Notes under the pieces: generated by a model | What the model saw: only the letters and a program-made list of their open reading frames with translations | What the model was told of the DNA's origin: nothing | Databases searched by the model: none | Origin: Dictyostelium discoideum | Taxonomy: Eukaryota | DNA length: 64,000 nucleotides | Assembly: GCA_000004695.1 (NCBI GenBank) | Contig: CM000151.3 | Location: 4,960,001 to 5,024,000, forward strand | Reading direction: 5' to 3' | Shown: positions 7,700-35,672 of the stretch, one piece after another | Numbering within the stretch: position 1 is the first letter of the stretch | How the letters are laid out: each line of letters begins with the position of its first letter | Program-made: the position numbers and the translations under genes

Positions 7700-7713
7700 A
7701 TATATTTTACGAA
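7700..7713. repeat. Target-site duplication (3'-side copy) of the TRE3-like element: CGAAGTTCGAATTT
   Basis: It is identical to 12842-12855 and abuts the element poly(A) (plus-strand poly-T). Confidence 0.7.
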
Positions 7714-7850
7714 GTTCGAATTTTTTTTTTTTTTTTTTTTGATATAAATAAACTATTGTAGTATACAATTAGTATGTTATTTTTATTTATTTATTTTAGG
7801 TTTTTTAGTTTTTGTGAATTTAAAATAGTATGTTATTTTAGATTAGGTAA

Positions 7851-10800
7851 TTAATAATTAATTGGTGGTGTAATTGTTGGAATTGGTTCATTTGTGTTTA
7901 TGCTCCATTCTTTTTTAAATTTTTTGATGGTTTCGGACCATTGGGTTTCTTTTTGAGTTTTTGTGAGGTTGTTTTTAATTGAGAATTGGTTAAAGTTTGA
8001 TAACCTTCTTGAATATTCCAATCTTATTAGCTTGTGCCATTTTGATTTTAATATATCATAATCTAGTGTTGTGTTGTTTATTTGGTTGTTCCAATTGTCA
8101 ATTGATTGAGTTATATTGATGTCAAATAATGATTTGCATAACCATATCCATATTTGGTGAATAACTAATGAGATTATGTTCCAATATGCATGTGTTCTGA
8201 CTAGATCAAGATTTGTGTTTATATAATTCCAGTTGAACCTGTATTTTTTATATTGTGCGTTTTCTGCAAAATGAAAATTAATATTGATAGTTGGATCTGG
8301 TTTAAATGCTTTGTTGTTTGTTTGTGGTTTATAAATGAGTGTGTATAATTTTGTTGTTTGGTTTTTTGTTAGTGACCAGTTTTTGTTTCCATTGCAATTT
8401 TTATATATAAAATATTTTAATTTGTCGTGGTTAATGAAGTTGATTGTGTGCTGACAATTGAAAAACAAATGACCATAGGGATCATTATTCATTTCATTGT
8501 TGCAAATGGGGCAAACTTTGTTGTGTAGATGATTAATCGGAAGACATCTAGCATGGAATCTTTGCATTGTATCTCGGCCTTTTGGATCTTTTAATTTTTG
8601 AATTTTGACAAAAAGTTGGTCGTATGTGTATTTCCATAATAGTTGTATTGATTGTTGGTGCGAAGTAAGAAGTAGATCTGAATATTTCTTGCCAATATAG
8701 TCTTTTGATTTGCATTGGTGATTGTTTAGTATTGTCGAGTAGATTTCTTTGAGTGTTGGTGGTAGTGAAATATTATTTGTGTTTAATGTTTGAGAGGGTT
8801 GGTTTTTTGTTAATATTGGTTGTAGGATTTGAACTTTATCTTTTAGATGTCCAATTTGAGTTGCATAGTTTTCCCATTCTTTTTTTATTTTTATAAGGTA
8901 TGGAGAAGAGATTGATTTGTTGATGATTTGATCCATCCAACTTATCATGTATATTGAATTGTTTGCAGATTTATGCATTTGTAAAAATCTGTTGTATATC
9001 CAAATCTTTTGAGCAACTTGTCGTAATTGGATATTCCACATACCCCAACCTCCTTCTTTTAATGGTTTTAATGATCTATCATAACACATCAAAGGTATTT
9101 TTGCACGTGAATGGATGGTTGATGTGTTGTTTTCAATGGAATTGGTATCGAGAGTTGGTGATTCAGAATTTGCGGGAGAATTCATAAACCATGAGATTAA
9201 TTTATTAATTTGAATTTCTTCATCTTTTTTGGTTATTGGAATTCTTTTTGATTGTGGAATGTTGTTTATTATGTGTTTATCAGTGATTTTGTGGGGGTTG
9301 ATTTCTATTATTGCACTTTTGTCAAAATTTAAAGATGATGATGTTGAAGCGCAGAAATTATCGAAATGTTTGATTGATTGTTGTTGTTGTTCGTAGTTGA
9401 TGTTGTATGTTGTAGAGTCGTCTGCAAATTGGGTAAATTTGATTTTAATTTGTGGATTGGGTGAAATTGGTAATCCAATTATTGAATTGTCTGCATTTAT
9501 TGTTCTTGCTAATATTTCAATTACAATTACAAATAAAGTGGCTGAGATTGGGTCACCTTGTTTTACACCTCTTTTAATATCGAATTTTCTGGTCGTTTTA
9601 CCATTAATTGAAATTTTTGCTTGTGAGTCAGATAATAGCTTGTGGATTAAATTTATTAATTTTATTGGTATACCAATATGAATTAATGTTCTTTTAATGC
9701 TATCGTGAGAGATAGAATCAAATGCTTTAAAGAAGTCAAATAGTGTGATGATACCAGGGAGGTTTTTAGATTTGAGGTAATTGATTAATTCATTGATGTT
9801 GATGATGTTGTCTATGATGAATCTGTGGGGTACGAAACCAGTTTGGTTGTTGTTGATGATGAAAGGAAGTATTCTCAGAAGACGTGCATTGATTACTTTT
9901 GAGAGGATCTTGTAATCAGTGTTTAGAAGTGTAATGGGACGACGATTTGATATGAGTAAGGGGTTGCCTTTCTTGTATATTGTGTGTATAAGACCTTCGG
10001 TGAATTCTGTTGTGATGTGGTGAGGATTTTCTAGTATATCGTTGAATAATGTAGTGAGAATTGGTTTAACTTGGTTTAAATGATTAATGTAGAATGCGTT
10101 TGTAACGCCATCTGGACCGGGTGATTTGTTGGGGTTACAGGTTTTAATTGCAGCTTCAACTTCATCTTGTATAAATGGTGAGTCTAAACCATTCCAATAT
10201 TCATTTTTTATGATGGGCCATGTGTTTAGCATGAGCTGGTGAGTAATTGGACAACATATTTGTAAGCTATATAGATTTGTGTAGAATTCAACAAACGCAT
10301 TTTCAATTTGGTCGGGGTCGGATGTAATTATGTTACCATATTGGATTGATTCAATTTTTGCATCTTTTGATCTTTTGTTTAGTATTGCTGATAGATACTT
10401 GCTAGGTATTTCTCCATTTATATGTTTTTTTAATATGTTTGTGTGGTTTTGATGTAATTTGTTTTTGTTACATATAATATTGTATTCAGCGATGCATTGT
10501 TCTTCAAGATGTTTGAATTTTGCTGCTTTTTCTAATAGTATTTGTTTTGCACGTTGAGTTTGTTTGTCTTTGTTATATTGATAGTTTTTTAGAGTTTTAA
10601 TAATTTTTGATTTTACTTTTGACCAGTTTGTAAATTGATTGATTGATGTGTTATTGTGATTAGTTATTAAATGATTGATAATATTGATTGCTTCATGGTC
10701 ATTTGCAGTACCAGGTGATAATATCCATCTTTTCTTATGTTTATTTATTTGAAAAGGTGAAGAAATTGTTGTTGATATTGGATTATGATCTGATAATGAA

Positions 10801-11477
10801 GATGGAATTTGGTGGACTTGTGTATATATATTTTCAGGGTCTATTCTATTGTATTGAGTATATATTCTATCTAATCTGTTGCCATGTGTATGAGTTGGAG
10901 TGTTTTTAAATTCACCTTGATCAATTAGATGGTGTTGGTATGTGTAGGATTGGATAATATCGTCTAATAGTGAATTGTCGTTGTGGATACAGTTGAAATC
11001 TCCTGCGATAATAGATACATGTTGGGATTGGTTTGGTATTGGGTTTGTTGAGTGGTTGTGGAGAAGTGTTTGTAGTGAAGTTGCATATGAATTCTTTTTG
11101 ATGGTATTATTTGATGCTGGTGCGTAAATTCCAAGAATACCAATTGGTAATTGATTTGGAAATATAACGTCTGCTAAAATAGCTCTACCATCAATTGTTG
11201 ATATGTGTTTGAGTTTGAGTGTGTTTGGGTTATGGTTAATGATGATTACACCATTTCCTCGTTTGGTGACAGAGATGATGTGATCGGGAAAATCATGTTT
11301 AAGTTGTAATGGTGATAAATTGAGTTCAGTGAGTATTGAGATTGTTGGACGAGGTGGAAGTTTTGATATAAGTAGTTGTAGTGTGTCAACAGCTTTTTGG
11401 TAGGAATTGTGTTGATTGTTTGGGTTTTCAGTGAATCCTCTACAATTCCATGTTATAAAGTTGATTTTTGAGCTCAT
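7851..11477 (-). CDS. Retrotransposon ORF2: apurinic-type endonuclease + reverse transcriptase + C-terminal Cys/His zinc knuckle (1208 aa, intact)
   Basis: The N-terminus is ITWNCRGF... (APE/EEP-like). The RT motifs are LLNTDYKILSK..., GFVPHRFI, and FTQFADDSTTY (FADD). The C-terminal motif is CPICNNEMNNDPYGHLFFNC.H. Its ATG overlaps the ORF1b stop (ATGA). Confidence 0.85.
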   Translation of the reverse strand: MSSKINFITWNCRGFTENPNNQHNSYQKAVDTLQLLISKLPPRPTISILTELNLSPLQLKHDFPDHIISVTKRGNGVIIINHNPNTLKLKHISTIDGRAILADVIFPNQLPIGILGIYAPASNNTIKKNSYATSLQTLLHNHSTNPIPNQSQHVSIIAGDFNCIHNDNSLLDDIIQSYTYQHHLIDQGEFKNTPTHTHGNRLDRIYTQYNRIDPENIYTQVHQIPSSLSDHNPISTTISSPFQINKHKKRWILSPGTANDHEAINIINHLITNHNNTSINQFTNWSKVKSKIIKTLKNYQYNKDKQTQRAKQILLEKAAKFKHLEEQCIAEYNIICNKNKLHQNHTNILKKHINGEIPSKYLSAILNKRSKDAKIESIQYGNIITSDPDQIENAFVEFYTNLYSLQICCPITHQLMLNTWPIIKNEYWNGLDSPFIQDEVEAAIKTCNPNKSPGPDGVTNAFYINHLNQVKPILTTLFNDILENPHHITTEFTEGLIHTIYKKGNPLLISNRRPITLLNTDYKILSKVINARLLRILPFIINNNQTGFVPHRFIIDNIININELINYLKSKNLPGIITLFDFFKAFDSISHDSIKRTLIHIGIPIKLINLIHKLLSDSQAKISINGKTTRKFDIKRGVKQGDPISATLFVIVIEILARTINADNSIIGLPISPNPQIKIKFTQFADDSTTYNINYEQQQQSIKHFDNFCASTSSSLNFDKSAIIEINPHKITDKHIINNIPQSKRIPITKKDEEIQINKLISWFMNSPANSESPTLDTNSIENNTSTIHSRAKIPLMCYDRSLKPLKEGGWGMWNIQLRQVAQKIWIYNRFLQMHKSANNSIYMISWMDQIINKSISSPYLIKIKKEWENYATQIGHLKDKVQILQPILTKNQPSQTLNTNNISLPPTLKEIYSTILNNHQCKSKDYIGKKYSDLLLTSHQQSIQLLWKYTYDQLFVKIQKLKDPKGRDTMQRFHARCLPINHLHNKVCPICNNEMNNDPYGHLFFNCQHTINFINHDKLKYFIYKNCNGNKNWSLTKNQTTKLYTLIYKPQTNNKAFKPDPTININFHFAENAQYKKYRFNWNYINTNLDLVRTHAYWNIISLVIHQIWIWLCKSLFDINITQSIDNWNNQINNTTLDYDILKSKWHKLIRLEYSRRLSNFNQFSIKNNLTKTQKETQWSETIKKFKKEWSINTNEPIPTITPPINY

Positions 11478-12680
11478 ACCTTACTAGGTTTGGCAGCACC
11501 AGTATTGACTGGTTGTGTAGTCAGGGCATTGCTGCTTCTTCTTGTATTTATTGGATTTGGAGTTGGTGCACTTGGTTTGTTTGGTTGAGATTGTAGAGGT
11601 TTTTGTGGTACAATTGTTGGATCGGTTGGATTGCTCATTGATAATGAGTTTTTCCCGTTATTATTATTTGAAGAATCACTTTTGTGTGAAATTTCATTAT
11701 TGTTTTGGGATTGATTGTTAATATCAAGTGATTCATTTAGTATAGCTTTTGAACCACTATTTTGAAGTGAGTTTTTATTGCGATTGGAATTTGCAATTTC
11801 GTTGATTGGTGGGGTGTTAATGTTGTTTTTTGGTGGTTGATTGTTTTTGTTCATGTTTGGGTTTGTGATGGCATTTTTTATAGTTGTTGCCATATCTGCA
11901 TTTTTTGCATGTTGAATTTTGTGTTTAGTGACACTACGTGTTGCAGCTTTGATATATCTTGTGATACCAGATGGTTGTTCGATCTTTTGATCAACAATGT
12001 TGTGTGTGATCAATTAGATGATATGTTATAATGTAGCTTTTAAACGCAACAGCATATGAGTATGTGACAGTAAATGATTCAATTGATGTACAACTGGTGA
12101 ATTTAGTGAGGTTGTTTGTAATTGCATCGTTTGCATGTTTGGGTGAGTACGTTTTAATGAATGTTTTAATGATTGCATAATCATTTGATGATATATCGAA
12201 TCTATAGTTGAGTTTGTCGATATTTAGTGCAAGTTGGTTTTGAAGGTTGATTATTGAAGTTAATTTATCAACGTTGCAATTTACGAAGGCAGTTGCACCA
12301 ATTATTTTGAATGCTGATGGCGACAGTATATCTTCGAAGAGTTTGTGAATGTTTTTGTGAATTTGTTGAATTCTTGTGTCATCTTTTGAGGTTAATTCTT
12401 CACGGATGTGTGGTTGATTAAAGTAACACTTAATGTTGATGGTGTTATTGTTTTTTTCTAAGAAAGAGAGTGGTCTTGTGATTGATGGAGGTGCAATGAT
12501 ATCTAATTGATTATCAAGTCCTTTGTTTAGTGAGAGTTGGTTTGTTGGGGTTTGTTTTTTAGGTGTGTCGATTTTTACACTTTTGTTTTTTGTTGTTGAG
12601 GTTGTGGAGGTATTATTTGTATTTGTTGTGTTGTTATCTGTATGATTTAACTGTAATTCAGTTGAGTGATCATCAGCCAT
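11474..12680 (-). CDS. Retrotransposon ORF1, bipartite. ORF1a is 12680..11991 (229 aa). ORF1b is 12013..11474 (179 aa), in the +1 frame with a 23-nt overlap. The same split is present in two further partial copies in this window.
   Basis: Both parts are N/T/S-rich and basic. The identical ORF1a stop and ORF1b start context recur at 22054-22076 and 22676-22698. That argues for a family feature rather than a private frameshift. Confidence 0.6.
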
Positions 12681-12841
12681 TGTTGAAAAGTATATAGGAC
12701 GATAGCCCTTGCTTTAATGAGCAAAAATAGGGTAAAATTAAGAGGAATGAATGTGGCGGTGAAGATATAACAGTGATTTATTTATTATATGTATAAATTC
12801 TCGTTTATTTCTTTGTTTTTTCGGTTTTTTGTTTTTTCAAT

Positions 12842-12855
12842 CGAAGTTCGAATTT
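12842..12855. repeat. Target-site duplication (5'-side copy) of the TRE3-like element. It contains a TTCGAA B-box-like core (ex-B box) 23-36 bp downstream of tRNA-Met.
   Basis: It is identical to 7700-7713 and lies directly outside the element's 5' UTR. Confidence 0.7.
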
Positions 12856-12877
12856 AGTGAAATTTCTAAAAAAGAAA

Positions 12878-12950
12878 TGTCAAGTCAGAGGATCGAACTC
12901 TGGACCTTAGGATTATGAGACCTACGCTCTACCAACTGAGCCAACCTGAC
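12878..12950 (-). tRNA. tRNA-Met (anticodon CAU), elongator type
   Basis: On the minus strand it reads GTCAGGT-T-G-GCTCAGTTGGTAGAGC-G-TAGGT-CTCATAA-TCCTA-AGGTC-CAGAG-TTCGATC-CTCTG-ACTTGAC-A. The cloverleaf has a 7-bp acceptor stem with one G·U pair. The anticodon stem has the U31·U39 mismatch typical of eukaryotic elongator Met. Confidence 0.9.
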
Positions 12951-12964
12951 ATGTTGATATTTTT

Positions 12965-13235
12965 TGTAATAAAGTTACTCTATAAAATTAATAGATATTA
13001 AATATGCATATTACATTACTAATTATAGTTGACACACATTTAAATAATATAATAATAATAATAATAATAATAATACTGTCAACTCATTATGAATAATATA
13101 AATACTAAAGAATAATTTTATAAACAATATTGAATATTATAAATATAAATTAATATTAAATAAAGATAACAAAGTATTATTCAATTATATAATTATTAAT
13201 TATATATATTTATAAAGCTAACAAGCTTTATTACA
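12965..13235 (+). repeat. 5' LTR of the gypsy-type element
   Basis: TGTAATAAAGTTACTC...CTTTATTACA. It matches 17736-18003. Confidence 0.9.
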
Positions 13236-13348
13236 TTTGGCGACATCGTCTTTCAAAAAAAAAAAAAAAAAAAAATATACTATAAATATAAAGTTATCAA
13301 ATTATTCAATCAATTAAAATTTTACATTAGATTAAATTTAATTTAATA

Positions 13349-13437
<89 letters not shown>

Positions 13438-13571
13438 TTATTATGAAAACCGTATTTTTTTCGGGTAATGGAAAGGGTTAATCATTCTTTAATTTCAACC
13501 ACTAACTCTTATTAATTCATGGCGAGGAAATATCGAAAGCTGATATTATTAGAAAACTAAGAAACAATGCA

Positions 13572-16500
13572 TTGGAATATGCCGCAACATTGGATACAGA
13601 CTTAACAGCAATGGAGATAATTGAAGATCTTAAAGATGCTTTTGATATTGGTGATAGTGATGATTTATCAGATTTAACAAAGTTAGGAGAATATAAATAC
13701 AATACATTAGATATATTAATTGGTAAATTTCTTTCAAAATGTTCAGCAGTTGATATTTCAGAAAAGTTTAAAATACAATTGTTTTATTCAGCTGTTGGTA
13801 TTGAATTGGGTATTGAAATTACAAAATGTGCACCAAAATCATTAAAAAGAGCAATAGACATTGCAAAGTCTTGTGAAGATGGTTCAATTCGTATGAGAGG
13901 TAGATCAATGTATACTGGTCAATTGGTTGCAAAAACATTACAAGAATTTGGAACTCAAAAGTATCTTGGTTCTGGATCTGGTTATACAACATCACCACAG
14001 TACGTTACATCTCAAACTGAACAATCTACTGAAACTGAAGTATTAGCAACTCCAATTTATAAAAATCAAACATATTCACCACCACCATCACCTTATAAAG
14101 CACCACAAAATCAAGTAAATTCAATCACAAAATTTTGTAAATATTGCAAAAAGAAAGGTCATGTAATTCAAGAGTGTTGGTCTAAAGATAAAAAGAATAA
14201 TTATAATGAGAATAAACAATCATATAATAATCATAGCACTAATGCAATTACAATGGTTAATGATAAAACGATTAATTCTATTGGAACTGATAGTATGAAT
14301 GCAGCATTATTAATAAATGATAAGAATGTTAGAGGTTTAGTTGATACTGGTTCTTCTCTTACCATCATTTGGGAAAGTATTGCTAAAAAATTAAATTTAA
14401 AAGTTGAAGGTAAATCATTTTCAGTTAATTCAGCATCAAATAATGAAATTAAGATAGTTGGTAGTTGTGATACCATAATTAAATTAGGTAAAGCATCCGC
14501 AAAAGTTAATGTTAATATTGTTAAAGATAATGATACTTCAATCGATTGCATTTTTGGTGTAGATACACTTATTGGATTGAAATTAATAATTGATTGCAAG
14601 GAAATGATCATTAAGAATCTTGAATTTAATGTTGGTACAAGATTAATCACCAGAGAAACCAAACCAATTGTTTGCAAAATTGATCTAAATATATTAGAAA
14701 AAGTATCAAAACCAATGGCTGAGTTATTAATCAAAAATGAAGAGATTTTTGAAACCAAATTGTCAAAACCAGGATCATTAATAGATGTTGAACATTCAAT
14801 TAAATTAACTGATGAAAATGTTTCTGTTTATACTCCACCATACAAAACTAGTCCAGCTGATAAAGAATTCATTGAAGAATACATTAAAGATGCATTAGAT
14901 AAAGGTATAATCGAGAAATCAGATTCATCACAATACGGTTCTCCAATAGTCTTATCCAGAAAGAATGATAAAATTAGATTTTGTGTTAATTATAAAAAAC
15001 TAAATGACCTCACAATTAAAGATAGATATCCACTTCCATTAATTTCTGATTGTTGGTATTATCTCAAAGATGCAAAAGTTTTCTCAAAAATTGATCTTAC
15101 TTCTGGTTATTATCAAATCAAAATGAAAGAAGAGGACAAGGATAAAACAACCTTTGTCTCTCATATGGGTCAATTTAGATATGTTGTAATGCCATTTGGA
15201 TTATGTAATGCACCAGCAACTTTTCAAAGATACATGAATGAATTATTAAAGGATGAATTAAGAAAAAGTAATATTGGGTTTATTGACGATTGTATAATTT
15301 ATAGCAAGAATAATGAATATCATATTGAACATGTCAAACTATTATTCGAAAAATTCAAAGAAAAAGGTGCAAAGTTACAAATAACTAAATGTGAGTTTGA
15401 AAAAGAAGAGATCAAGTTTTTGGGATATATCGTTTCAAAGAATGGTATTACTTATGATAGTTCAAAGTTTAATGAATTATTAAAAACACCACCTCCATCA
15501 AATCAAAAAGAATTAATGAAATTACTCGGTACTGTCAATTACTTTAGAACATTCATTAAAAATTTCACTCATTTAACTTCATCATTTTATCCACTATTAA
15601 AGAAGGGTGTTAATTTCAAATGGACTGATGAATTGGAAAATGATCGTGTAAAATTATTTACTACATTAGCACAAACTAATCTTTTAAGTTTTCCACAAGA
15701 TACAGATGATAATGTTATTGAAACTGATGCTTCAATTATTGGTATTGGTGGTGTAATGATTCAAAATGGTAAACCAGTTTCTTATTATTCAAGAACATTA
15801 AACAACGCTGAAAAGAATTATTCTGTTACTGAAAGAGAATGTTTGGCAATCATTGAATCAATTAAATATTTTAAATCCTATATCAATGGTAGAAAAGTAA
15901 AAATCATCACTGATCATCAACCTTTGAAATATCTCTTAACTGGTAAATTTACTGATCGTATTACAAGATGGACTGTATTACTTCAAGAGTATAATTACGA
16001 AATTATATATAGACCTGGTAAAGAAAACTTTTTAGCTGATGCATTATCAAGATGTCCAGATAGAGATCAACAGCCAATTGATTGTGATATTCCAGAAAAG
16101 ATATTTACAATTACTCACTATCCAGTAGCTTCACCATCAACTACAATTTTACCAAGAGTCTTACCATCAAGATCAAATCAAACATCTAATGTTTCACCAG
16201 CTACAACAATTCAACCACCAAATTCATCAAGTTCAAATCAATCATCAAATATCCCACCAACAACAAACCAATCATCAAATATTACAAATCAACCAATAAA
16301 TACTTCATCAATGAATTTAAATCAATCATTATCAAATCAAGCAACAACCGCTAGATTATTGAATAGTGTACCTATCTCAATCAACAATGATAATATTAAT
16401 ACAACAACTCCACAATTTACACAAGAGTCAATAAGAAAAGAGTTGGAAAAAGAAAATTATTATAGAGCAATGTATAAATATCTTGAAGAAACAAGACTTC

Positions 16501-17723
16501 CAGACAATGCACAAGCAGCAAGAAGAATTTTGTTCGAGTCTGAATTTTATTCAATGATTAATGGATTTCTTTGTCACGGTTTAAAACATACTTTATCAAG
16601 TAAGAAATCTCATTTTAAACATCTTCAAATTGTAGTTCCAAAAACTATGACTAAATGGATAATGGAAATATTTCATGATTCGCCACTTACTGGAGGACAT
16701 TTTGGATTATTAAAAACTGTCGCAAAAATCAAAGAAAGATTCTATTGGATTGGTATGATTAAGGATATAAAAGAATTTATCGATAAATGTACAACTTGTT
16801 TACAAATTAAAAGAAAGTATGGTCCAAAAGAAGGTTTACTCATTCCAATTGAGATTGAACCTGAACCATTTAATACAATTGGTATTGATTTTATTGGTCC
16901 AATTACAAAAGATAATGCTCAAGTTTATTTGTTGGTTGTTATGGATTATTTTACTAAATGGCCAGAAGTTTTCTTTACCCTTGATATGGAAGGGGAGACT
17001 GTAGCTCAATTATTGTTGTATGAAATCTATACTAGATATGGGGTTCCAAAGAAGTTGGTTTCTGATCGTGGTAAGAATTTTTTAAGTAATGTAGTCTCTG
17101 GTGTTAATAAATTATTCGGTGTTCACAAATTAACAACTACTGCTTATCACCCACAATGTGATGGTCAAACTGAAAATTTCAATAATACATTAATTAAGAT
17201 GCTCAAAGCTTTTATTGGTAATGAATTGTATGGCAATTGGGGTGAATTATTAAGATGTGTTTTATACTCATACAGAATTACACCACATGTTTCAACTGGT
17301 TTTTCACCCTTTTTCTTACTTTTTAATCGTCAACCAACTTTACCATTAGATACAACTTTAAATGTAAATTTTTATTCAAATTCACTAAGATTAGATTTCG
17401 CTGATAATTATGCACAATCCGTAAATAATAATCTTAAACGTGCCTTTTGGTTTACAAAGAATAATCTCGATAAAGCTCAAGAATTACAAAAAACAAATTA
17501 TGATAAAGGTCGTCGTCCAACAAATATTCAAACAGGTGATTTTGTTTATTTACATACACCATATTCACAAACTTCTATTGGTCCAAAGAAATTCTATAAA
17601 CCTTGGAGAGGTCCTTTTAAAGTTCAAGAAAAAGTTAGCGATGTTACATTCAAATTAGATATGGGTAATCTTAGAGATCATAAAGTAGTCAATATTGAAA
17701 GATTGAAAAAAATTTTCAACTAA
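13572..17723 (+). CDS. Gag-Pol polyprotein (1383 aa, intact): CCHC zinc knuckle, aspartic protease, reverse transcriptase, RNase H, integrase
   Basis: The zinc knuckle is CKYCKKKGHVIQEC. The protease motif is LVDTGSS. The RT motifs are YVVMPFGLCNAPATFQRYM and FIDDCIIYS (YxDD). The integrase HHCC finger is H..H...CTTCLQIK. A DDE core and a C-terminal GPF/Y-type module (WRGPFKV) follow. The order PR-RT-RH-IN indicates Ty3/gypsy. Confidence 0.9.
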   Translation: MEYAATLDTDLTAMEIIEDLKDAFDIGDSDDLSDLTKLGEYKYNTLDILIGKFLSKCSAVDISEKFKIQLFYSAVGIELGIEITKCAPKSLKRAIDIAKSCEDGSIRMRGRSMYTGQLVAKTLQEFGTQKYLGSGSGYTTSPQYVTSQTEQSTETEVLATPIYKNQTYSPPPSPYKAPQNQVNSITKFCKYCKKKGHVIQECWSKDKKNNYNENKQSYNNHSTNAITMVNDKTINSIGTDSMNAALLINDKNVRGLVDTGSSLTIIWESIAKKLNLKVEGKSFSVNSASNNEIKIVGSCDTIIKLGKASAKVNVNIVKDNDTSIDCIFGVDTLIGLKLIIDCKEMIIKNLEFNVGTRLITRETKPIVCKIDLNILEKVSKPMAELLIKNEEIFETKLSKPGSLIDVEHSIKLTDENVSVYTPPYKTSPADKEFIEEYIKDALDKGIIEKSDSSQYGSPIVLSRKNDKIRFCVNYKKLNDLTIKDRYPLPLISDCWYYLKDAKVFSKIDLTSGYYQIKMKEEDKDKTTFVSHMGQFRYVVMPFGLCNAPATFQRYMNELLKDELRKSNIGFIDDCIIYSKNNEYHIEHVKLLFEKFKEKGAKLQITKCEFEKEEIKFLGYIVSKNGITYDSSKFNELLKTPPPSNQKELMKLLGTVNYFRTFIKNFTHLTSSFYPLLKKGVNFKWTDELENDRVKLFTTLAQTNLLSFPQDTDDNVIETDASIIGIGGVMIQNGKPVSYYSRTLNNAEKNYSVTERECLAIIESIKYFKSYINGRKVKIITDHQPLKYLLTGKFTDRITRWTVLLQEYNYEIIYRPGKENFLADALSRCPDRDQQPIDCDIPEKIFTITHYPVASPSTTILPRVLPSRSNQTSNVSPATTIQPPNSSSSNQSSNIPPTTNQSSNITNQPINTSSMNLNQSLSNQATTARLLNSVPISINNDNINTTTPQFTQESIRKELEKENYYRAMYKYLEETRLPDNAQAARRILFESEFYSMINGFLCHGLKHTLSSKKSHFKHLQIVVPKTMTKWIMEIFHDSPLTGGHFGLLKTVAKIKERFYWIGMIKDIKEFIDKCTTCLQIKRKYGPKEGLLIPIEIEPEPFNTIGIDFIGPITKDNAQVYLLVVMDYFTKWPEVFFTLDMEGETVAQLLLYEIYTRYGVPKKLVSDRGKNFLSNVVSGVNKLFGVHKLTTTAYHPQCDGQTENFNNTLIKMLKAFIGNELYGNWGELLRCVLYSYRITPHVSTGFSPFFLLFNRQPTLPLDTTLNVNFYSNSLRLDFADNYAQSVNNNLKRAFWFTKNNLDKAQELQKTNYDKGRRPTNIQTGDFVYLHTPYSQTSIGPKKFYKPWRGPFKVQEKVSDVTFKLDMGNLRDHKVVNIERLKKIFN

Positions 17724-17735
17724 AAGGGGGGGATA

Positions 17736-18003
17736 TGTAATAAAGTTACTCTATAAAATTAATAGATATTAAATATGCATATTACATTACTAATTATAGT
17801 TGACACACATTTAAATAATATAATAATAATAATAATAATAATACTGTCAACTCATTATGAATAATATAAATACTAAAGAATAATTTTATAAACAATATTG
17901 AATATTATAAATATAAATTAATATTAAATAAAGATAACAAAGTATTATTCAATTATATAATTATTAATTATATATATTTATAAAGCTAACAAGCTTTATT
18001 ACA
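17736..18003 (+). repeat. 3' LTR of the gypsy-type element
   Basis: Same sequence as the 5' LTR with a 3-bp microsatellite difference. Confidence 0.9.
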
Positions 18004-18457
18004 TTTTGAAATATTTTTGAAATATTTTTGCACCATTACGTTTTATTTCCATTCCAAAAAAAAAAAACGTTTTATTTTTCATTGGGAAGAAACTAATAAT
18101 TGTGTTATCCAATTCAAAAAAGTATTTTTCATTTAAATTATTTTTTTTATATAATTCTACAGTATTTCATGAATGTTCATTTTTATTCTTTATTATTTTT
18201 TTTTTTTTAATTTTTAATTTTTTTTTTTTTTTTTTTTGAAAATTAAAATCAAAACCAAGATATTTTTTTTTTTTTCTTCCCTTATTTTTTTTTTTTTATT
18301 TTTATAACTATTCTTTAATAGAATTCTTTTTTTAAAAAAAAAGAACACCATGGAAGCTTTTTTGTTTTTTTTTTAAAAATGGATATAAATTATTATTTTT
18401 TTTTTTTAAAAAAATAAAACAAGATAATATCCAAAAATAAATAAAACAGAAAAAAAA

Positions 18458-18973
18458 ATGCCTCCAAAGATTAAAATAATTACAGGTCCAATCGGTTCTG
18501 GAAAAACAACAATTTTAAATAGAATCAAAGAGTCATATGAAAGAAAAGAAATCTTTATTGGTCAAAAGGTTGGATTTTTTGGTGAACCTACTGATTCCAC
18601 TGTAGCTAATGCTCTCCTAAAGGATATGTACTCAAAGTTTCCATTTGCTAATGATCAGTTTGAAACTTTACAAAAATACCTAATGGCTGTGGAAGCTAAT
18701 GATTTATGTAATGCTTTGTCATCGTCAGAGTATGATATTGTTTACTTTGATACATCGGTTTTGTATGGAGTTGTATTTTTACAAACTGCTAATGATTTGA
18801 AAATCATAAACAATCAAACCTATTCAAATTGTCTAACGTTTTACTATCAAATGATTTCAAATATTAATTTCGAAAATGCTGAAGTAACCAATTTAAAAGT
18901 CATACCACACATAGGTGTATGGAGCAAATTAACCAAAGAGGTAGAGCCTTTGAAGTCGGTAGTTTATCTATAG
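18458..18973 (+). CDS. P-loop NTPase resembling the deoxynucleoside-kinase family. The ORF appears interrupted: the LID-like motif ..RGRAFEVG..YVSKL continues in another frame at ~18945-19050. It is a possible pseudogene or sequence error.
   Basis: The Walker A motif is GPIGSGKTT. An EP..D motif is present. A second frame encodes QRGRAFEVGSLSIDYVSKLTDKIRSHCVSQVYQDLKNQ*, resembling the dNK LID region R..RGR.eE..I..eYL..L. Confidence 0.35.
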   Translation: MPPKIKIITGPIGSGKTTILNRIKESYERKEIFIGQKVGFFGEPTDSTVANALLKDMYSKFPFANDQFETLQKYLMAVEANDLCNALSSSEYDIVYFDTSVLYGVVFLQTANDLKIINNQTYSNCLTFYYQMISNINFENAEVTNLKVIPHIGVWSKLTKEVEPLKSVVYL

Positions 18974-19326
18974 ACTATGTTTCCAAATTAACCGATAAAA
19001 TTCGATCTCATTGTGTTAGCCAAGTTTATCAAGACTTGAAAAACCAATAAAATGCTGTATCCATAGAGAATACAAAAGCAATGATGACCTGTTCAATGAC
19101 ATTTTCTTTAATGAAAATCCAAACTCAATTCCCACACCATCAAATACTCTAACTCAATCTCTTCAAAGTTCACACTCAAATCTTAGTTTTTATTACCCAT
19201 CGAATCAAGAGCAATATTTTAATATTCAAGATTATTTGAATTAATAAAACTAAATTCTAAATAATACTATAAAAAAAAAAAAAAAAAATAAAAATATATT
19301 TAAATTAAATAAAAAAAGAAAAAAAA

Positions 19327-19512
19327 ATGTCTACATTTGCCGATCTTCGTTCTGTTTCAGGTGGCTTACTAGGTGGTATGGGTAGTATTGGTGTTGCCGC
19401 TCTTGGTGCCTACTTTATTTATACAAGTGAAATTGGAAGCGTTGATTTCAATATGGGTGTTGGTTTTGCTGCCTTTGGTTGTCTCTTAGTCTCAGATCAT
19501 TATTCAAAATAA
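19327..19512 (+). CDS. Small (61-aa) Gly/Ala-rich hydrophobic protein, putative single-pass or two-pass membrane protein
   Basis: Local G+C is markedly higher than in the flanks, and codon usage is coding-like (GGT/GCC/GTT). Confidence 0.35.
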   Translation: MSTFADLRSVSGGLLGGMGSIGVAALGAYFIYTSEIGSVDFNMGVGFAAFGCLLVSDHYSK

Positions 19513-19671
19513 AAATGATTAAAGAAAAATGATTAAAAGAAAAAAAAATAAAATAAAAATTTTTAAGATAACTAGATTTCAATGATTTTTTTTTCAATTA
19601 TTATTTATCAAAATTATTTATTTATTTAAAATAAAAACAAAAATAGTTGATGGTTTTATTTGTTTTTTTCT

Positions 19672-19923
19672 TCATTTTCTTTTGGCACATAATCTAACAA
19701 CTTTTCCATCTATATACTGAAGATTTGTTAATAATTCAGTTCTTTCTTTAAAACGATTTTTTTTTACGATTTTTTCTTTACAGTCAGCTGTACATACACA
19801 AGGTTCAAACTTGGGGAATTCATCTGGATCTGTTAATAGCCACATGTATTTACTCTTTTTTTCCTCAGCTTCTTCAATGGATAAATTTGAATGTGGGCAC
19901 TTATTAGTAGTTCTTTCTTCCAT
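19672..19923 (-). CDS. Small (83-aa) Cys-containing basic protein, possible zinc-ribbon-like; function unknown
   Basis: The ORF has coding-like composition in an AT-rich context. Its cysteines are spaced C10, C41-x-C43, C47, C79. Confidence 0.3.
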   Translation of the reverse strand: MEERTTNKCPHSNLSIEEAEEKKSKYMWLLTDPDEFPKFEPCVCTADCKEKIVKKNRFKERTELLTNLQYIDGKVVRLCAKRK

Positions 19924-20169
19924 TATTTAAGTTGTAACTATAAATATGTTTGTGCGATAATGTTTTATTTTTAATGTTAGTAAAATAAGTATTAAAAAAA
20001 AATTAAATTATTATTTAAAAAAAATAGAAAAAAACTGTGGGTGTGGTGTTTTAATGATTCCAAAAAAAAAAAAAATCAATAATAAAATAAAAAATTTTAT
20101 AAATAAAATCTTTAATCTTTTTTAAATTAACTCTTATATAATTATTTTGTAAATGGTTATTTCAAAATT

Positions 20170-20430
20170 AGACCTAATGATCATGAGACCCTACGCTCTA
20201 CCAATTGTGCCAACCCGACATGTTGATATTTTTTGACAAAAAATGCTCAATCTGGTGTTATCCAATTCAAAAAAAAAAAGTTTCTTAATGATTTACCTTA
20301 GGATTATGAGACCTGCACTATACCAACTTAACCAAACTGATATGTTGATATTTTTCCTTAGAAAAATGACTAACCAGATATTTTTTAATGTTGAAAAACT
20401 CAACCATCTGGAATTCAAAAAAAATTATAA
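20170..20430 (-). repeat. About 2.5 tandem copies of a ~115-bp unit. The unit holds a degenerate tRNA-Met 5'-half pseudogene with its native 5' flank (CATGTTGATATTTTT) and the motif GTGTTATCCAATTCAAAAAA that lies beyond the LTR element at 18101.
   Basis: On the minus strand, 20176-20240 reads GTCGGGTTGGCACAATTGGTAGAGCGTAGGGTCTCATGATCATTAGGTC, versus the real GTCAGGTTGGCTCAGTTGGTAGAGCGTAGGTCTCATAATCCTAAGGTC. The second copy at 20289-20345 is more decayed. Confidence 0.6.
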
Positions 20431-21254
20431 CCTTTACATCAACACCCCAAAAATTGAGGCTAATTCAATACCAACTACATAAGGTTAAGTTTAAAACAAA
20501 ATAATAAAAATTAATAATAATAATATTAACAATAATAATAAGAAATAAAAAAAATTTATTAAAAAACAATATCAAAACTCTGAGGCTTTGGGTTATATTA
20601 TGGAATTTCTTTTGGCAAAAAGAAAAAAAAAAAAAAAAATAAAATTCTAAGAAAAACTTACATAATTTAGAATAAGTAATTAAGAGATAATAGATAACAC
20701 TATATGTATGTTTTAGTGTAAAATTTCTTTTATAACCTTTAATTAAAATTTTTATTTTTCTCACCATTTTTCGTTTTTTCAAAAAAACTTAAAATGCATA
20801 ATTTGGATAGTCTTTATTTGAAAGTAAAAAACCAGGAATGATAAGAAAAATAAAAATTTAAAATAAAGATTATAAAAAATAATTAACACACCAAAACATA
20901 CCATATGTTATTTATTATCTCTTAATTATTTACTTAATCTAATAGATATTCTAACAAAACATTTAAAAATAATTAGTTATGAAATACAAATATATGAATT
21001 AAATATATGTTTAGAAATAAAACAAATAATTAAAACAAATAAAAGATTTATTATTGTTATGGAAATTGTAAAATAAAAACTGATGTTAGTCTCATTACAA
21101 TTATGGGCGATGGTTTTTGCTAATAAAATTTAATAAGGCTTTAAAACTTTTTTTTTTTTTTTACATCTCTTTAAAAATTCCAATTTTCTTGCAACTTTCT
21201 TCCAAATTTTAAGAAAGGTGATCATTTCCAGTATTTAAAATAAATTTCCATCAA

Positions 21255-21328
21255 GCCTTAGTAGCTCAGTTGGTACGAGCGTGAGACTGAAGATCTTAAG
21301 GTCGCTGGTTCGATCCCGGCCTGAGGCA
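21255..21328 (+). tRNA. tRNA-Phe (anticodon GAA)
   Basis: GCCTTAG-TA-GCTC-AGTTGGTAC-GAGC-G-TGAGA-CTGAAGA-TCTTA-AGGTC-GCTGG-TTCGATC-CCGGC-CTGAGGC-A. The cloverleaf is canonical and the acceptor stem is fully paired. Confidence 0.9.
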
Positions 21329-21345
21329 AATATTTTTTGATGGTT

Positions 21346-22374
21346 TTCCAATGGCTGATGATCACTCCGCCGAAAAGACACAGTCTGATCACAGGTAAAA
21401 AAAAAAAAAAAAAAAGTTAAATCATACAGATAACAACACAACCAATACAAATAATACCTCCACAACCTCAACAACAAAAAACGAAAGTGCAAAAATCGAC
21501 ACACCTAAAAAACAAACCCTAACAAACCAACTCTCACTAAACAAAGGACTTGATAATCAATTAGATATCATTGCACCTCCATCAATCACAAGACCACTCT
21601 CCTTCTTAGAAAAAAACAATAACACCATCAACATTAAGTGTTACTTTAATCAACCACACATCCATGAAGAATTAACCTCTAAAGATGACACAAGAATCCA
21701 ACAAATTCACAAAAATATTCACAAACTCTTCGAAGATATACTGTCGCCATCAGCATTTAAAATAATTGGTGCAACAGCCTTGGTAAATTGCAACGTTGAT
21801 AAATTAACTTCAATAATCAACCTTCAAAACCAACTTGCACTAAATATAGACAAACTCAACTATAGATTCGATATATCATCAAATGATTATGCAACCATTA
21901 AAACATTCATTAAAACGTACTCACCCAAACATGCAAACGATGCAATTATAAACAACCTCACTAAATTCACCAGTTGTACATCAATTGAATCATTTACTGT
22001 CACATACTCATATGCTGTTGCGTTTAAAAGCTACATTATAACATATCATCTAATTGATCACACACAACATTGTTGATCAAAAGATCGAACAACCATCTGG
22101 TATCACAAGATATATCAAAGCTGCAACACGTAGTGTCACTAAACACAAAATTCAACATGCAAAAAATGCAGATATGGCAACAACTATAAAAAATGCTCTC
22201 ACAAACCCAAATATTAACAAAAACTATCAACCACCAAAAAACAACATTAACACCCCACCAATCAACGAAATTGCAAATTCCAATCGCAATAATAACCCAC
22301 TTCAAAATAGTGGTTCAAAAGCTACACTAAATGAATCACTTAATAATAACGGGAAAAACTCATTATCAATGTGA
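21346..22374 (+). mobile_element. TRE3-like retrotransposon fragment, plus-strand arm. It covers ORF1 from its ATG (no 5' UTR) to inside ORF1b. It begins 18 bp downstream of tRNA-Phe and is truncated at the palindrome centre.
   Basis: It is ~90-95% identical to 12680-11640 on the opposite strand. The ORFs 21780..22076 and 22054..22374 reproduce the ORF1a end and the ORF1b start. Confidence 0.8.
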
Positions 22375-23480
22375 GATTTCATTATTGTTTTGGGATTGAT
22401 TGTTATTATTAAGTGATTCATTTAGTGTAGCTTTTGAACAACTATTTGGAAGTGGGTTATTATTGTGATTGGAATTTGCAATTTCGTTGATTGGTGGGGT
22501 GTTAATGTTGTTTTTTGGTGGTTGGTTGTTTTTGTTAATATTTGGGTTTGTGAGAGCATTTTTTATAGTTGTTGCCATATCTGCATTTTTTGCACGTTGA
22601 GTTTTGTGTTTAGTGACACTACGTGTTGCAGCTTTGATATATCTTGTGATACCAGATGGTTGTTCGATCTTTTGATCAACAATGTTGTGTGTGATCAATT
22701 AGATGATATGTTATAATGTAGCTTTTAAACGCAACAGCATATGAGTATGTGACAGTAAATGATTCAATTGATGTACAGCTGGTGAATTTGGTGAGGTTGT
22801 TTGTAATTGCATCGTTTGCATGTTTGGGTGAGTACGTTTGAATGAATGTTTTAATGATTGCATAATCATTTGATGATATTTCGAATCTATAGTTGAGTTT
22901 GTCGATATTTAGTGCAAGTTGGTTTTGAAGGTTGATTATTGAAGTTAATTTATCAACATTGCAGTTTACGAAGGCAGTTGCACCAATTATTTTAAATGCT
23001 GATGGCGACAGTGTATCTTCGAAGAGTTTGTGAATGTTTTTGTGAATTTGTTGAATTCTTGTGTCATCTTTAGAGGTTAATTCTTCACGGATGTGTGGTT
23101 GATTAAAGTAACACTTAATGTTGATGGTGTTATTGTTTTTTTCTAAGAAGGAGAGTGGTCTTGTGATTGATGGAGGTGCAATGATATCTAATTAATTATC
23201 AAGTCCTTTGTTTAGTGAGAATTGGTTTGTTGGGGTTTGTTTTTTAGGTGTGTCGATTTTTGCACTTTTGTTTTTTGTTGTTGAGGTTGTGGAGGTATTA
23301 TTTGTATTGGTTGTGTCGTTATCTGTATGATTTAATTGTAATTCAGTTGAGTGATCATCAGCCATTGTTGAAAGGTATATAGGACGATAGCCCTTGCTTT
23401 ACTGAGCAAAAATAGGGCAAAATTAAGATGAATGAATGTGGTGGTAAAGATATAACAGTGATTTATTTATTATATGTATA
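22375..23480 (-). mobile_element. TRE3-like retrotransposon fragment, minus-strand arm (5' UTR + ORF1a + start of ORF1b). It is inverted relative to the adjacent plus arm, forming a ~1.0-1.1 kb palindrome.
   Basis: 23341-23470 matches the first copy's 5' UTR (12681-12830). The ORF 22366..22698 is the ORF1b start. Both arms end at the same internal position, within ~50 bp. Confidence 0.8.
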
Positions 23481-23517
23481 AATTCTTGTTTATTTCTTTG
23501 TTTCGTTTTTTTTCATA

Positions 23518-23582
23518 CTTTGATAATTTTTATAATTTTGATAATTTTGATATTTTTGATATTTTTGATATTTTTGATAGTT
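23518..23582. repeat. Tandem 9-10-bp repeat (TTTTGATAWT)x7 abutting the 5' end of the minus arm
   Basis: tttgataatttttataattttgataattttgatatttttgatatttttgatatttttgatag. Confidence 0.6.
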
Positions 23583-23789
23583 TGTTAAATCCAATGAGGA
23601 ATATAAAGTCAAAAATTAATTATAAAAAAAAAAAAAAACTGGTTTAGAAAATTCACATACATTTTAACAAAGAATAGTATATTGATTAATCCATCAAAGA
23701 TTTAGACAAATAGTGTACACTTTGTTAAATTGGAAAAAATTGTATTGTTAAAAACCAAAAAAGTTGGTTTTTTTTATTTATTTATTTAT

Positions 23790-26985
<3,196 letters not shown>

Positions 26986-27103
26986 CTATTTATATATGTA
27001 TGTATATAAATTAAAATTAAAATAAAAATAAATTAAATTATTAATATAATAATTTAAATTATAATAATATTAAAAAAAAAAAAAAAAAAAAGTTTTTACA
27101 TAC

Positions 27104-27279
27104 TCTAACATTGATAATAAATTAACTTCATTCATAGCATCGCTTCTTTCTTTTGGTTGCATTTCCATAACATTTATTTCTTTTAAAACTAATAAAAGAC
27201 CATCTGATTTCCTTTTAACTAAAATCGCTCTACCAAATGAACCTTTACCTATGGTTTTAATTTCTTCATATTTATCCAT
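27104..27279 (-). CDS. NIMA-related (NEK) Ser/Thr protein kinase, exon 1 (Gly-loop and VAIK region); GTATGT donor at 27103
   Basis: MDKYEEIKTIGKGSFGRAILVKRKSDGLLLVLKEINVMEMQPKERSDAMNEVNLLSML(D). Splicing restores ..LSMLDHENIIGYYDSF, the typical NEK sequence. Confidence 0.8.
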
Positions 27280-27340
27280 ATTTTTTTCTTTTTTTTTTTT
27301 TTTTTTTTTTTTATTGTTTTATTTGCTAGTAGTAATTTGG

Positions 27341-30594: not shown

Positions 30595-30613
30595 ATGTCA
30601 AATTGGGAACACG
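30595..30613 (+). CDS. PLAC8 (DUF614, Cys-rich) family protein, exon 1 (MSNWEH + 1 nt); GTATGT donor
   Basis: The tiny first exon is spliced to GLCDCTSD..., giving the PLAC8 N-terminal signature W..GLxDCxxD. Confidence 0.55.
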
Positions 30614-30681
30614 GTATGTAAATAATTTATTTTTTTATTTTTATAAAATAAATATCTAACTAAATTTTATTTTTAAATTAG

Positions 30682-30740
30682 GTTTATGCGATTGTACTTC
30701 TGATATCAGAGTTTGTTGTATCAGTTACTTATGGCCACAA
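30682..30740 (+). CDS. PLAC8 family protein, exon 2 ((G)LCDCTSDIRVCCISYLWPQ); GTAAAT donor
   Basis: The phases are consistent with exons 1 and 3. Confidence 0.55.
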
Positions 30741-30886
30741 GTAAATATATATAATCATGATATTTTAAAATTGAAATATTATCATTTATCTCTGTTTTTA
30801 AAAATATTAACCAATTTTTCTCATAAAATATAAATATTAACATTTATCTTTGTTATTTCTAATGAAACCAATTTTTTGACCCCAAG

Positions 30887-31138
30887 CTTCAAATTATGCA
30901 ACAGAGGGCTACAGTAGAGGGCAGACAGTGTGAAATCACTGATTGCATCTTCACTGCTTTATGTTTTCCATGTGTTACTTGTTTAACTCGTTCACAAATC
31001 AGAGAAAAACATGGTATAGAAGGTTCAGGTGTTATGGATTGTTTAACTGTCTGTTATTGTACCCTCTGTACCATTCACCAACAAACTATGCAACTCCAAG
31101 CTAAAGGTGAAAAACCATCAGGTTTATTCATGAACTAA
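30887..31138 (+). CDS. PLAC8 family protein, exon 3 (...CFPCVTCLTRSQIREKHGIEGSGVMDCLTVCYCTLCTIHQQ...)
   Basis: It matches the PLAC8 C-terminal consensus (..R..YGI.GS...DC....CC..C.L.Q), and the total length is ~109 aa. Confidence 0.65.
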   Translation, partial: LQIMQQRATVEGRQCEITDCIFTALCFPCVTCLTRSQIREKHGIEGSGVMDCLTVCYCTLCTIHQQTMQLQAKGEKPSGLFMN

Positions 31139-35093: not shown

Positions 35094-35181
35094 TGACTCC
35101 TTAGCATAGTGGTTTATTGTAATTGTCTCCAAAACGTTAGAAGTTAGCAGTTGGTCCAGGGTTCAACTCCCTGAGGGGTCT
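35094..35181 (+). tRNA. tRNA-Trp (anticodon CCA) with a 13-nt intron (35133-35145) at the canonical 37/38 position. Pol III terminator TTTTT at 35186.
   Basis: GACTCCT-TT-AGCATAGTGGTTTATTG-T-AATTGT.. The anticodon stem is ATTGT/GCAGT around the loop CTCCAAA, with the intron AACGTTAGAAGTT, then A38. The variable loop is TGGTC. The T arm is CAGGG-TTCAACT-CCCTG. The acceptor 3' strand is AGGGGTC. The ex-B box GGTTCGAATC lies at 35209-35218. Confidence 0.7.
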
Positions 35182-35672
35182 GTGTTTTTAAACCTAGCTG
35201 AAGTCGTAGGTTCGAATCTCTTCATTAAAATCTTAGGCTTTAATCTTATTTCCAAGCTCACTTCCAAATAGAGTAATGGTAGAAATTTTTTGGTCTTTTA
35301 AAATTTTTTTTAGGAAACAAAATAAATATATTTAAATTTAAAATAAATTAAATAAAAAAATAATAATAAAAACTATTTGATAAAAAAAAGTTATAGAAAT
35401 TGTTCCTTCTATTACTAAATTAATTTTCTAATCCAAATTCCTAATATTTTCATCAAAACACAACAATTGAAATTTCTAAATAAATTTTTAAAAAAAAAAA
35501 AAAAAATTTAAGTACGTAATAATTTTTTTTCATTTATTTTTTGATTTGAAACTTTTTAATTGAAAAAATAAAAATATCTTCTGATTTTTTTTAAATTTTT
35601 TTTTTTTTTTTTTTTTTTTTTTGATTCCGAGCAAAATCCAAAAAAAAAAAAATAAAAAAACTGATCACGTAA

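Follow-up and report, generated by a model that had tools for sequence, protein, structure and literature searches.

A 5'-only inverted pair of TRE3 retrotransposon fragments beside a tRNA-Phe gene of Dictyostelium discoideum

Background

Non-long terminal repeat (non-LTR) retrotransposons normally leave 5'-truncated copies that keep the 3' end. Immediately downstream of a tRNA-Phe gene of Dictyostelium discoideum, two fragments of such an element, TRE3, have kept 5' sequence only and lie tail to tail, forming a palindrome of 2.2 kb. Is this structure real and, if so, how could an element of this kind leave the same 5' region twice, facing outward? We analyzed the locus within a stretch of 64,000 nucleotides (nt) of genomic DNA (assembly GCA_000004695.1, contig CM000151.3, positions 4,960,001 to 5,024,000 of the forward strand), referred to here as the window; all coordinates are those of this whole stretch, position 1 being its first letter. 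The G+C content of the window is 22.7%, its proteins match AX4 gene models of D. discoideum, two of which, cited below, belong to chromosome 2, and ARAGORN detects four tRNA genes in it.

Members of the TRE3 family integrate 40-150 bp downstream of a tRNA gene and in the same transcriptional orientation (PMC5911963); their second open reading frame (ORF2) encodes endonuclease, reverse transcriptase and zinc finger domains, and they end in an oligo(A) tail (PMC5911963, PMC5006619). Our main result is that the palindrome is neither a recent snap-back nor an assembly artefact. It is an old structure whose two arms are pseudogenes, and the locus has no coding function. Its geometry is unusual and explicable by known kinds of rearrangement. 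We regard it at present as a curiosity of one locus, made by a transposon family already known.

Results and discussion

Anatomy of the inverted pair

An initial annotation of the sequence had described an inverted pair of fragments from the 5' region and ORF1 of a retrotransposon beside tRNA-Phe, and both a self-comparison and the match to a full-length element of the same window, called copy 3 here, bear this description out (Table 1). The core of the arms is 934 nt long without gaps, with 27 mismatches (97.1% identity) and 51 nt between the halves, according to a repeat finder and a direct count; an inverted repeat of this size cannot be explained by chance. The plus arm has the orientation of tRNA-Phe and carries no 5' untranslated region (UTR), and its similarity to the element begins 19 nt after the tRNA, at 21344-21348, where flank and element have TTTT in common as a microhomology. 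The annotation had rightly started this arm near the ORF1 ATG, which it put at 21346 and 18 bp from the tRNA; the ATG is in fact at 21351-21353. The minus arm has the opposite orientation. Its proposed content of 5' UTR and ORF1 (22375-23480) was correct, except that the distal end lies further out, at 23516, where the 5' end of the element is complete.

The tail-to-tail geometry also stands, the join being at 22370/22371, with an overlap of TG, rather than at 22374/22375. At this point the plus arm has reached element nt ~1206 and the minus arm nt ~1157, which agrees with the near-equal internal endpoints first noticed: they are 49 nt apart in the element. The arms differ from each other by 27 substitutions, a 60-nt deletion and a 49-nt replacement. 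Among these differences, an I->T change was correctly seen (it is at 21895), as was a deletion between AATAATAAC repeats in the plus arm, whose size of ~57 bp had been slightly underestimated; the argument that arms so different are no recent snap-back is strengthened by a second assembly, described below, in which the differences recur. The seven-copy array reported to abut the distal end does so at the true end of the minus arm.

Both arms stop inside ORF1 and have neither ORF2, 3' UTR nor A tail, so that 3' sequence and poly(A) are missing on both sides of the junction while the 5' ends point outward; no target-site duplication accompanies them. They are fragments of a TRE3 member, not complete members. 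The TTTGATAAT array occupies the interval between the 5' end of the minus arm and ~23578, where similarity to isolates with an empty site resumes, and diverged flank, filler and 5' transduction are candidates for its origin. An Rfam scan of 20800-24000 gave tRNA-Phe only; a MIR6140 match at the centre of the palindrome was discarded as noise (24 bits, E = 0.25, for a gathering score of 140).

Table 1. Coordinates in the window of the inverted pair, its immediate surroundings and the reference copy of the element
Feature	Position	Strand	Basis or remark
tRNA-Phe (GAA) gene	21255-21328	+	ARAGORN; Rfam tRNA, 62.5 bits
T-run terminator of tRNA-Phe	21333-21338	+	
Native tRNA-Phe flank still present, AATATTTTTTGATGGTTTT	21329-21347	+	Alignment with L010 and L011 (wild isolates)
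Plus arm, TRE3 fragment, element nt ~157-1206 (copy-3 numbering)	21348-22371	+	97.3% identity to copy 3
Insert in plus arm: 30 nt ending ...CACAGGT, then A19, G	21367-21416	+	Replaces 11-13 nt of ORF1
60-nt in-frame deletion in plus arm, between AATAATAAC direct repeats	22350-22351	+	Alignment with six other copies
Inverted-repeat core, left half	21417-22350		Pairs with 22402-23335
Tail-to-tail junction, 2-nt microhomology TG (arms overlap)	22370-22371		Read against copy 3
Inverted-repeat core, right half	22402-23335		Pairs with 21417-22350
Minus arm, TRE3 fragment, element nt 1-1157, 5' end complete	22370-23516	-	96.2% identity to copy 3
Minus arm, ORF1 ATG	23365-23363	-	
Minus arm, 5' UTR	23366-23516	-	
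TTTGATAAT array, period 9, 7.2 copies	23519-23583	+	TRF
Copy 3, full-length TRE3, 5121 bp	7721-12841	-	Reference for element numbering

The element family and its reference copy

Copy 3 has ORF1 and ORF2 and ends in an A tail of ~20 nt. Its ORF2 (7851-11477, 1208 amino acids (aa)) matches the Pfam domains Exo_endo_phos (E = 5.5e-13) and RVT_1 (E = 5.8e-31) and has the same length as DDB_G0275221. Because both arms match the 5' part of this copy at 96-97% DNA identity (BLAST within the window), and because its ORF2 has endonuclease and reverse transcriptase, we assign the arms to the TRE3 family. The element is probably of the A subfamily (TRE3-A, or Tdd-3): its ORF2 shares a cluster at >=90% with the GenBank entry AAD43057.1 'pol' (1999), and this is the largest TRE3-type cluster, with 29 + 13 members. 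This putative assignment is based on the abundance of the cluster and on the presence of AAD43057.1 in it.

The target-site duplication of copy 3, TTCGAACTTCG, is 11 nt long (12852-12842 and 7720-7710), and the 5' end of the copy lies 35 nt after a tRNA-Met gene (12877-12951, minus strand) in the same orientation. Two wild isolates (L010 and L011, introduced below) have the exact empty site (L010 1417-1431), where the duplicated target spans 11-15 nt within a CGAAGTTCG motif, 25-35 nt downstream of tRNA-Met; this confirms the duplication. Further TRE3 copies were taken from a second D. discoideum assembly, so that nine copies other than the arms, mostly young, could be compared. Wherever a tRNA neighbor was detectable (5/5 copies; tRNA-Met, Lys, Thr, Leu and one undetermined), the element had the orientation of the tRNA and began 30-61 nt after it. 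Four copies encode an identical gene model of 1596 aa, and their DNA is also identical across the ~934-nt aligned block of ORF1, which indicates that the family was recently active. An intact ORF1 has 402 aa.

Target-site duplications of TRE3 copies are often found in TTTTACGAAG(T/C)TCGG or in a B-box-like motif. Several tRNA genes have the near-palindromic TTTTACGAAG(T/C)TCGG 20-35 nt downstream of them, where the duplications fall (L010 2733-2752, L007 ~2330, L008 ~2335, window 12842-12852). The motif is missing downstream of tRNA-Phe in the window; it may be an external B box or a related landmark. Head-to-tail tandem pairs of TRE3 follow one tRNA gene in three of the loci examined (L004 5841-12469, L008 2348-9063, L012 1-8128); repeated hits on a single tRNA are therefore common, all in the same orientation. 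Another candidate, P0008, was expected to hold a different TRE3 subfamily and proved to be a tandem pair of TRE3-A copies. Locus L003 contains at 7854-9177 an old copy of the subfamily of the arms, which abuts a polyketide-synthase-like gene; a B-box-like GATCGATTCT lies ~90 nt upstream, and no tRNA gene occurs in the 7.8 kb of upstream DNA examined. This copy is thus either off-target or orphaned.

A second assembly reproduces the structure

The initial annotation had called for long-read support across the junction, and a second assembly was compared with the window here. GCA_054883475.1 (sequence L002), which we infer to be the de novo Nanopore and Illumina assembly of strain AX2-214 (PMC12745789), aligns to positions 10801-32337 of the window with 109 differing alignment positions, all of which sit in homopolymers, in an LTR element (13255-14860) or in copy 3. 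Over 14857-27288 there is no difference at all: the 27 arm-specific sites, the A19 tract and the junction are reproduced base for base. AX2 and AX4 go back to the same natural isolate; the agreement therefore confirms the structure and carries no information on natural polymorphism.

Copy 3 illustrates how the two assemblies can diverge. In the window it has lost one CA from the (CA)5 tract of ORF1 (12001), which splits the frame into 229 aa and 179 aa, while the same copy in GCA_054883475.1 (L002 ~1201) has the CA and an intact ORF1 of 402 aa; further single-base differences fall at 12409 and 12624. One of the assemblies probably has a wrong consensus here, brought about by the neighboring arms, which lack the CA.

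Errors related to repeats thus seem to be present nearby, both in copy 3 and in the clustered differences of the LTR element, and a snap-back, or reads of dispersed TRE3 copies mis-joined in a repeat-rich Sanger assembly, could in principle have created the palindrome. We consider this hardly credible: the second assembly contains the same structure unchanged and yet differs elsewhere, so it is no copy of the reference, and the arms are unlike every other copy sampled.

The site is empty in two wild isolates

The orthologous region of two wild D. discoideum assemblies, L010 and L011, was reached through a neighboring PLAC8 gene (~30595-31138, DDB_G0275243); a further candidate, P0054, was rejected as not syntenic. 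The flanks in L010 and L011 are 77-94% identical to the window. In both isolates, AATTCTTTTTTGAAAAAATGGTATTTTACGAAGTTCGG... comes after tRNA-Phe, and unique DNA of ~345 nt precedes a kinase gene, with no TRE3 sequence between the tRNA and the kinase gene. The annotation had asked whether one arm is missing in other strains; in these two isolates, both are.

Similarity between the isolates and the window breaks off at 21340-21347 and resumes near 23578. In the empty sites the flank AATATTTTTTGATGGTTTT runs on into the motif TTTTACGAAGTTCGG, the usual TRE3 target, with which ~265 nt of native DNA begin that are lost from the window. With arms 2.9% diverged and two wild isolates without it, the structure is old.

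Decay and relatedness of the arms

Translation of the plus arm meets a stop within the 49-nt replacement, and that of the minus arm a nonsense codon at 23194; in addition, both arms lack CA from the (CA)5 tract, which shifts the frame of ORF1. The 60-nt deletion of the plus arm takes out element nt 1126-1185, including the position at which the minus arm ends; it hit one side of the original stem tip and widened the unpaired centre to 51 nt. The insert of 30 nt and A19, found 38 nt downstream of tRNA-Phe and oriented like the tRNA, looks like a later, extremely 5'-truncated retro-insertion, which suggests that the tRNA remained a target. The 30 nt found no source in the window or in 12 loci. 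Very short retro-insertions of the form ...ACACCGCTTTTAGGT(A)n, with target-site duplications of their own, also occur directly after TRE3 poly(A) tails (L004 ~11165-11200, L007 ~7670-7700), and the ending ...AGGT(A)n is common to these and to the insert of the plus arm.

In a tree of the arms and the nine other copies, the arms group with the old copy of L003, on another chromosome, in a clade with 98% bootstrap. The distance between the arms is 2.9% and that of each arm to L003 3.2-3.3%, compared to 0-1% among young copies; the arms belong to an old subfamily, and an unlinked old copy is no further from them than they are from one another. Copy 3 was ruled out as a gene-conversion donor of the minus arm, from which it is 3.2% different, with another 5' flank. 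Arm differences average one per 34 nt, and ~150 nt of ORF1 around the (CA)5 tract (21988-22134) are free of substitutions in 11/11 copies, old ones included, a pattern that may reflect constraint at the RNA level.

Were the arms identical when they arose? Four of their 27 differences fall on sites that are polymorphic among the other copies, with the same two states, and three of these four are shared with L003. Simulated random mutation gives 0.51 such coincidences (P = 0.0015). Starting from identical arms, independent mutation therefore does not account for the data unless it is supplemented by ectopic gene conversion, and this pattern argues that the arms did not simply begin as identical copies. 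If, on the other hand, the copies were fully independent, their shared frameshift must be accounted for.

Origin of the palindrome

Outward 5' ends and missing 3' sequence and poly(A) exclude plain target-primed reverse transcription and twin priming, as the initial annotation had maintained. In twin priming of L1, an inverted 5' segment is combined with a direct 3' segment that carries poly(A), that is, with a different part of the RNA, and the 3' sides are outward. The present structure resembles such inversions in being an inverted arrangement within a non-LTR insertion, with microhomology at its internal junction. It differs in that both arms cover the same 5' region, with 5' ends outward and no poly(A), and twin priming was rejected on this geometry.

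The plus arm is a canonical tRNA-targeted insertion by its orientation and by the motif at its left junction, which has a 4-nt microhomology and falls where other copies have their target-site duplication. It follows the rule of TRE3-A / Tdd-3 for position and orientation. Its 19 nt to the tRNA are fewer than the quoted 40-150 bp, but five other copies begin at 30-61 nt. The pair departs from that family in that both arms are 5'-only, without ORF2, 3' UTR and poly(A), and in that the minus arm is opposite to the tRNA. The natural 5' terminus, as L003 has it, is no more than ~3 nt away from the end of this arm. Because the arm ends at the true terminus of the element, its outer boundary was made by reverse transcription up to the end of the RNA, and not by duplication of DNA.

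The same boundary bears on a purely DNA-level origin, close to the aberrant template switch mentioned in the initial annotation, in which, during replication or break repair, the nascent strand of a single copy would switch template by microhomology onto the complementary strand, copy ~1.1 kb backwards and switch back. Such an inverted duplication would give the 2-nt microhomology of the junction, the near symmetry of the arms, and the frameshift and four exclusive substitutions that they have in common. It would leave to coincidence that the inverted copy stops ~3 nt from the natural 5' terminus, without any inverted flank or tRNA sequence. Moreover, the 155-nt 5' UTR of the minus arm is missing from the plus arm, which could thus have served as template only if it suffered a deletion afterwards, and the shared polymorphisms (P = 0.0015) weigh against it as well. 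We retain this origin as an improbable one.

The breakpoints are 49 nt apart in a 5.1-kb element; they would be so close by chance in ~2% of cases by our own estimate (2 x 49 / 5100), which points to a process in which the arms were paired. The model that we tentatively rank as the best, and which needs the fewest special assumptions, is that of two tail-to-tail insertions followed by a near-symmetric deletion of the centre of a long palindrome. The first step is visible in the anatomy of the locus: the 5'-truncated plus arm was inserted through ordinary target-primed reverse transcription at the TTTTACGAAG motif that TRE3 usually targets, 19 nt from tRNA-Phe and oriented like it. Another copy from this old subfamily, whose 5' end is complete, would then have come to lie ~270 nt further downstream in the opposite orientation, to give a tail-to-tail pair with arms of up to 5 kb. 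This long palindrome, being unstable, may have lost its centre, namely the 3' portion and the poly(A) tail of each copy together with ~265 nt of native DNA that separated the two; with the breakpoints side by side in a hairpin stem or cruciform, they would be joined at near-equal element positions (~1206 and ~1157) through 2 nt of microhomology. The remnant finally decayed to what is seen today: the arms diverged by 2.9% and took up nonsense codons and frameshifts, 60 nt were lost at the tip of one of them, which lowered the symmetry further, and the tiny retro-insertion arrived 38 nt after the tRNA.

This sequence of events explains the missing 3' parts, the coincidence of the breakpoints, the native 265-nt loss, which is expected if that DNA lay at the deleted centre, and the inherited polymorphisms. 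It amends the proposal of two independent tRNA-targeted insertions followed by recombination: two insertions are favored, only the plus arm obeys the tRNA rule, and a near-symmetric deletion joined by microhomology describes the second event better than recombination.

Several observations nevertheless weigh against two insertions with a deleted centre, its weak points being the off-rule second insertion and the shared frameshift. The reverse orientation of the minus arm breaks the targeting rule of TRE3, and neither ARAGORN, Rfam nor a B-box search found a tRNA relic or B box on the 5' side of this arm; off-target copies do exist, as L003 shows, which is near no tRNA. Common to both arms are the CA deletion and four substitutions that occur in none of the nine other copies, which fits a single defective ancestor better, parallel slippage or gene conversion from arm to arm being otherwise needed. 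Within the clade, the arms are sisters with 58% bootstrap and the minus arm joins L003 with 40%, and the nine copies compared are few and mostly young. No intermediate allele, a full-length tail-to-tail pair, was seen. Palindromes suffer centre deletions in other organisms; at the present locus, such a deletion is hypothetical.

The main rival, an origin of the inverted arm through reverse transcriptase itself, was considered in two versions, which taken together we judge rather unlikely. In the first, a TRE3 RNA truncated at ~nt 1206 folds back and primes itself at ~nt 1157, and the resulting RNA-cDNA hairpin is copied into the target from the distal nick toward the tRNA. In the second, which is endonuclease-independent, a double-strand break in a pre-existing plus copy is repaired by microhomology-primed reverse transcription of TRE3 RNA. 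Both agree with an outer end of the minus arm at the exact 5' terminus of the RNA, and with an arm that is 3'-truncated, has no poly(A) and no detectable target-site duplication, and shows 2 nt of microhomology and a target loss of ~265 nt. The minus arm thus has all five descriptive features, including microhomology and target loss, of endonuclease-independent insertions of long interspersed nuclear elements (LINEs). They do not prove this mechanism, because an ordinary insertion that had lost its 3' half should show them just as well, and endonuclease-independent insertion alone leaves unexplained why priming took place no further than 49 nt from the breakpoint of the neighboring copy.

Self-priming accounts for more of the structure: the complete distal arm as opposed to the 5'-truncated arm on the tRNA side with its TTTT microhomology, the near-symmetric arms with a 49-nt loop, and the shared CA frameshift and four exclusive substitutions. 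It predicts, however, arms that are identical at birth, so that the four coincidences with polymorphic sites among 27 (P = 0.0015) require added ectopic gene conversion. Break repair fits the features of the minus arm but not the symmetry, since it leaves the near-coincidence of the breakpoints to the ~2% chance. Both versions also require the 265-nt target deletion, and no report of either process for TRE elements was found in the literature searched, where few papers mention TRE3-A.

Could the locus yield a hairpin RNA?

Whatever its origin, the palindrome left by the two arms could give a 1-kb hairpin RNA if it is transcribed: the predicted fold of a transcript running from 23516 to 21329 has a stem with 954 arm-to-arm pairs. 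The complete 5' UTR of the minus arm is presumably an internal promoter, from which transcription would cross the junction into the antisense of the plus arm. A precedent in the same organism is an incomplete piece of Skipper located on chromosome 2, for which a long hairpin RNA is possible (~320-bp stem) and which matches all eight cloned Skipper small RNAs, of 21 nt (PMC2175303); 21-nt RNAs have been reported from TRE3-A as well, without their loci (PMC6161686). Like the Skipper locus, the present one is a retrotransposon inverted repeat that could yield double-stranded RNA against its own family. In contrast to it, the element is non-LTR, the stem (934 bp) is three times longer, and the loop is 51 nt instead of ~900 nt.

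The similarity of the arms shows no sign of upkeep, their mutual divergence being equal to that from L003. We therefore treat a hairpin-RNA role, and the transcription that it would need, as possibilities. It is quite unlikely that the palindrome is a working hairpin-RNA gene that silences active TRE3-A or, alternatively or additionally, the first recorded self-primed hairpin complementary DNA of a tRNA-targeting LINE. If the former were true, double-stranded RNA of ~1 kb would be diced into 21-nt small RNAs of TRE3-A, and the locus would be a trap made by the family itself.

Other features of the window

An LTR retrotransposon occupies 12965-18006, with LTRs of 274 bp (12965-13238 and 17736-18006) and one ORF for gag, protease, reverse transcriptase, RNaseH and integrase. 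Its start is 14 bp upstream of tRNA-Met, in keeping with descriptions of DGLT-A, and it is missing from both wild isolates; nearly all base differences between the two laboratory-strain assemblies concentrate in its 5' part, 13255-14860. The next 2.1 kb, between this element and tRNA-Phe (18007-20139), are also missing from both wild isolates and bear a gene for a 235-aa P-loop protein (18465-19251; ACTFIT_003713). A 1.3-kb part of this segment is found with 92% identity at a non-syntenic place in 'D. cf. discoideum' (L013 9722-11068), beside a YqaJ-like gene, and the segment may belong to a further mobile element.

The spacer from tRNA-Met to tRNA-Phe contains repeated pieces similar to the 5' half of tRNA-Met (20171-20236 and 20295-20355), in the wild isolates too (L010 1657-1717). 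Further downstream (35095-35219), a tRNA-Trp gene is 87 nt long and therefore probably has an intron; GGTTCGAATCT, a B box close to the consensus, follows it after 28 nt and illustrates what an external B box looks like.

Conclusions

As an outward-facing pair of 5'-only fragments, the structure records a rearrangement or an aberrant integration beside a tRNA gene in a very compact genome. Under the favored model, the locus would be a dated natural example of long transposon palindromes being trimmed to stabler inverted repeats. Were it transcribed, double-stranded RNA directed against TRE3-A, a family that still has identical full-length copies in the laboratory strain, could plausibly come from it.

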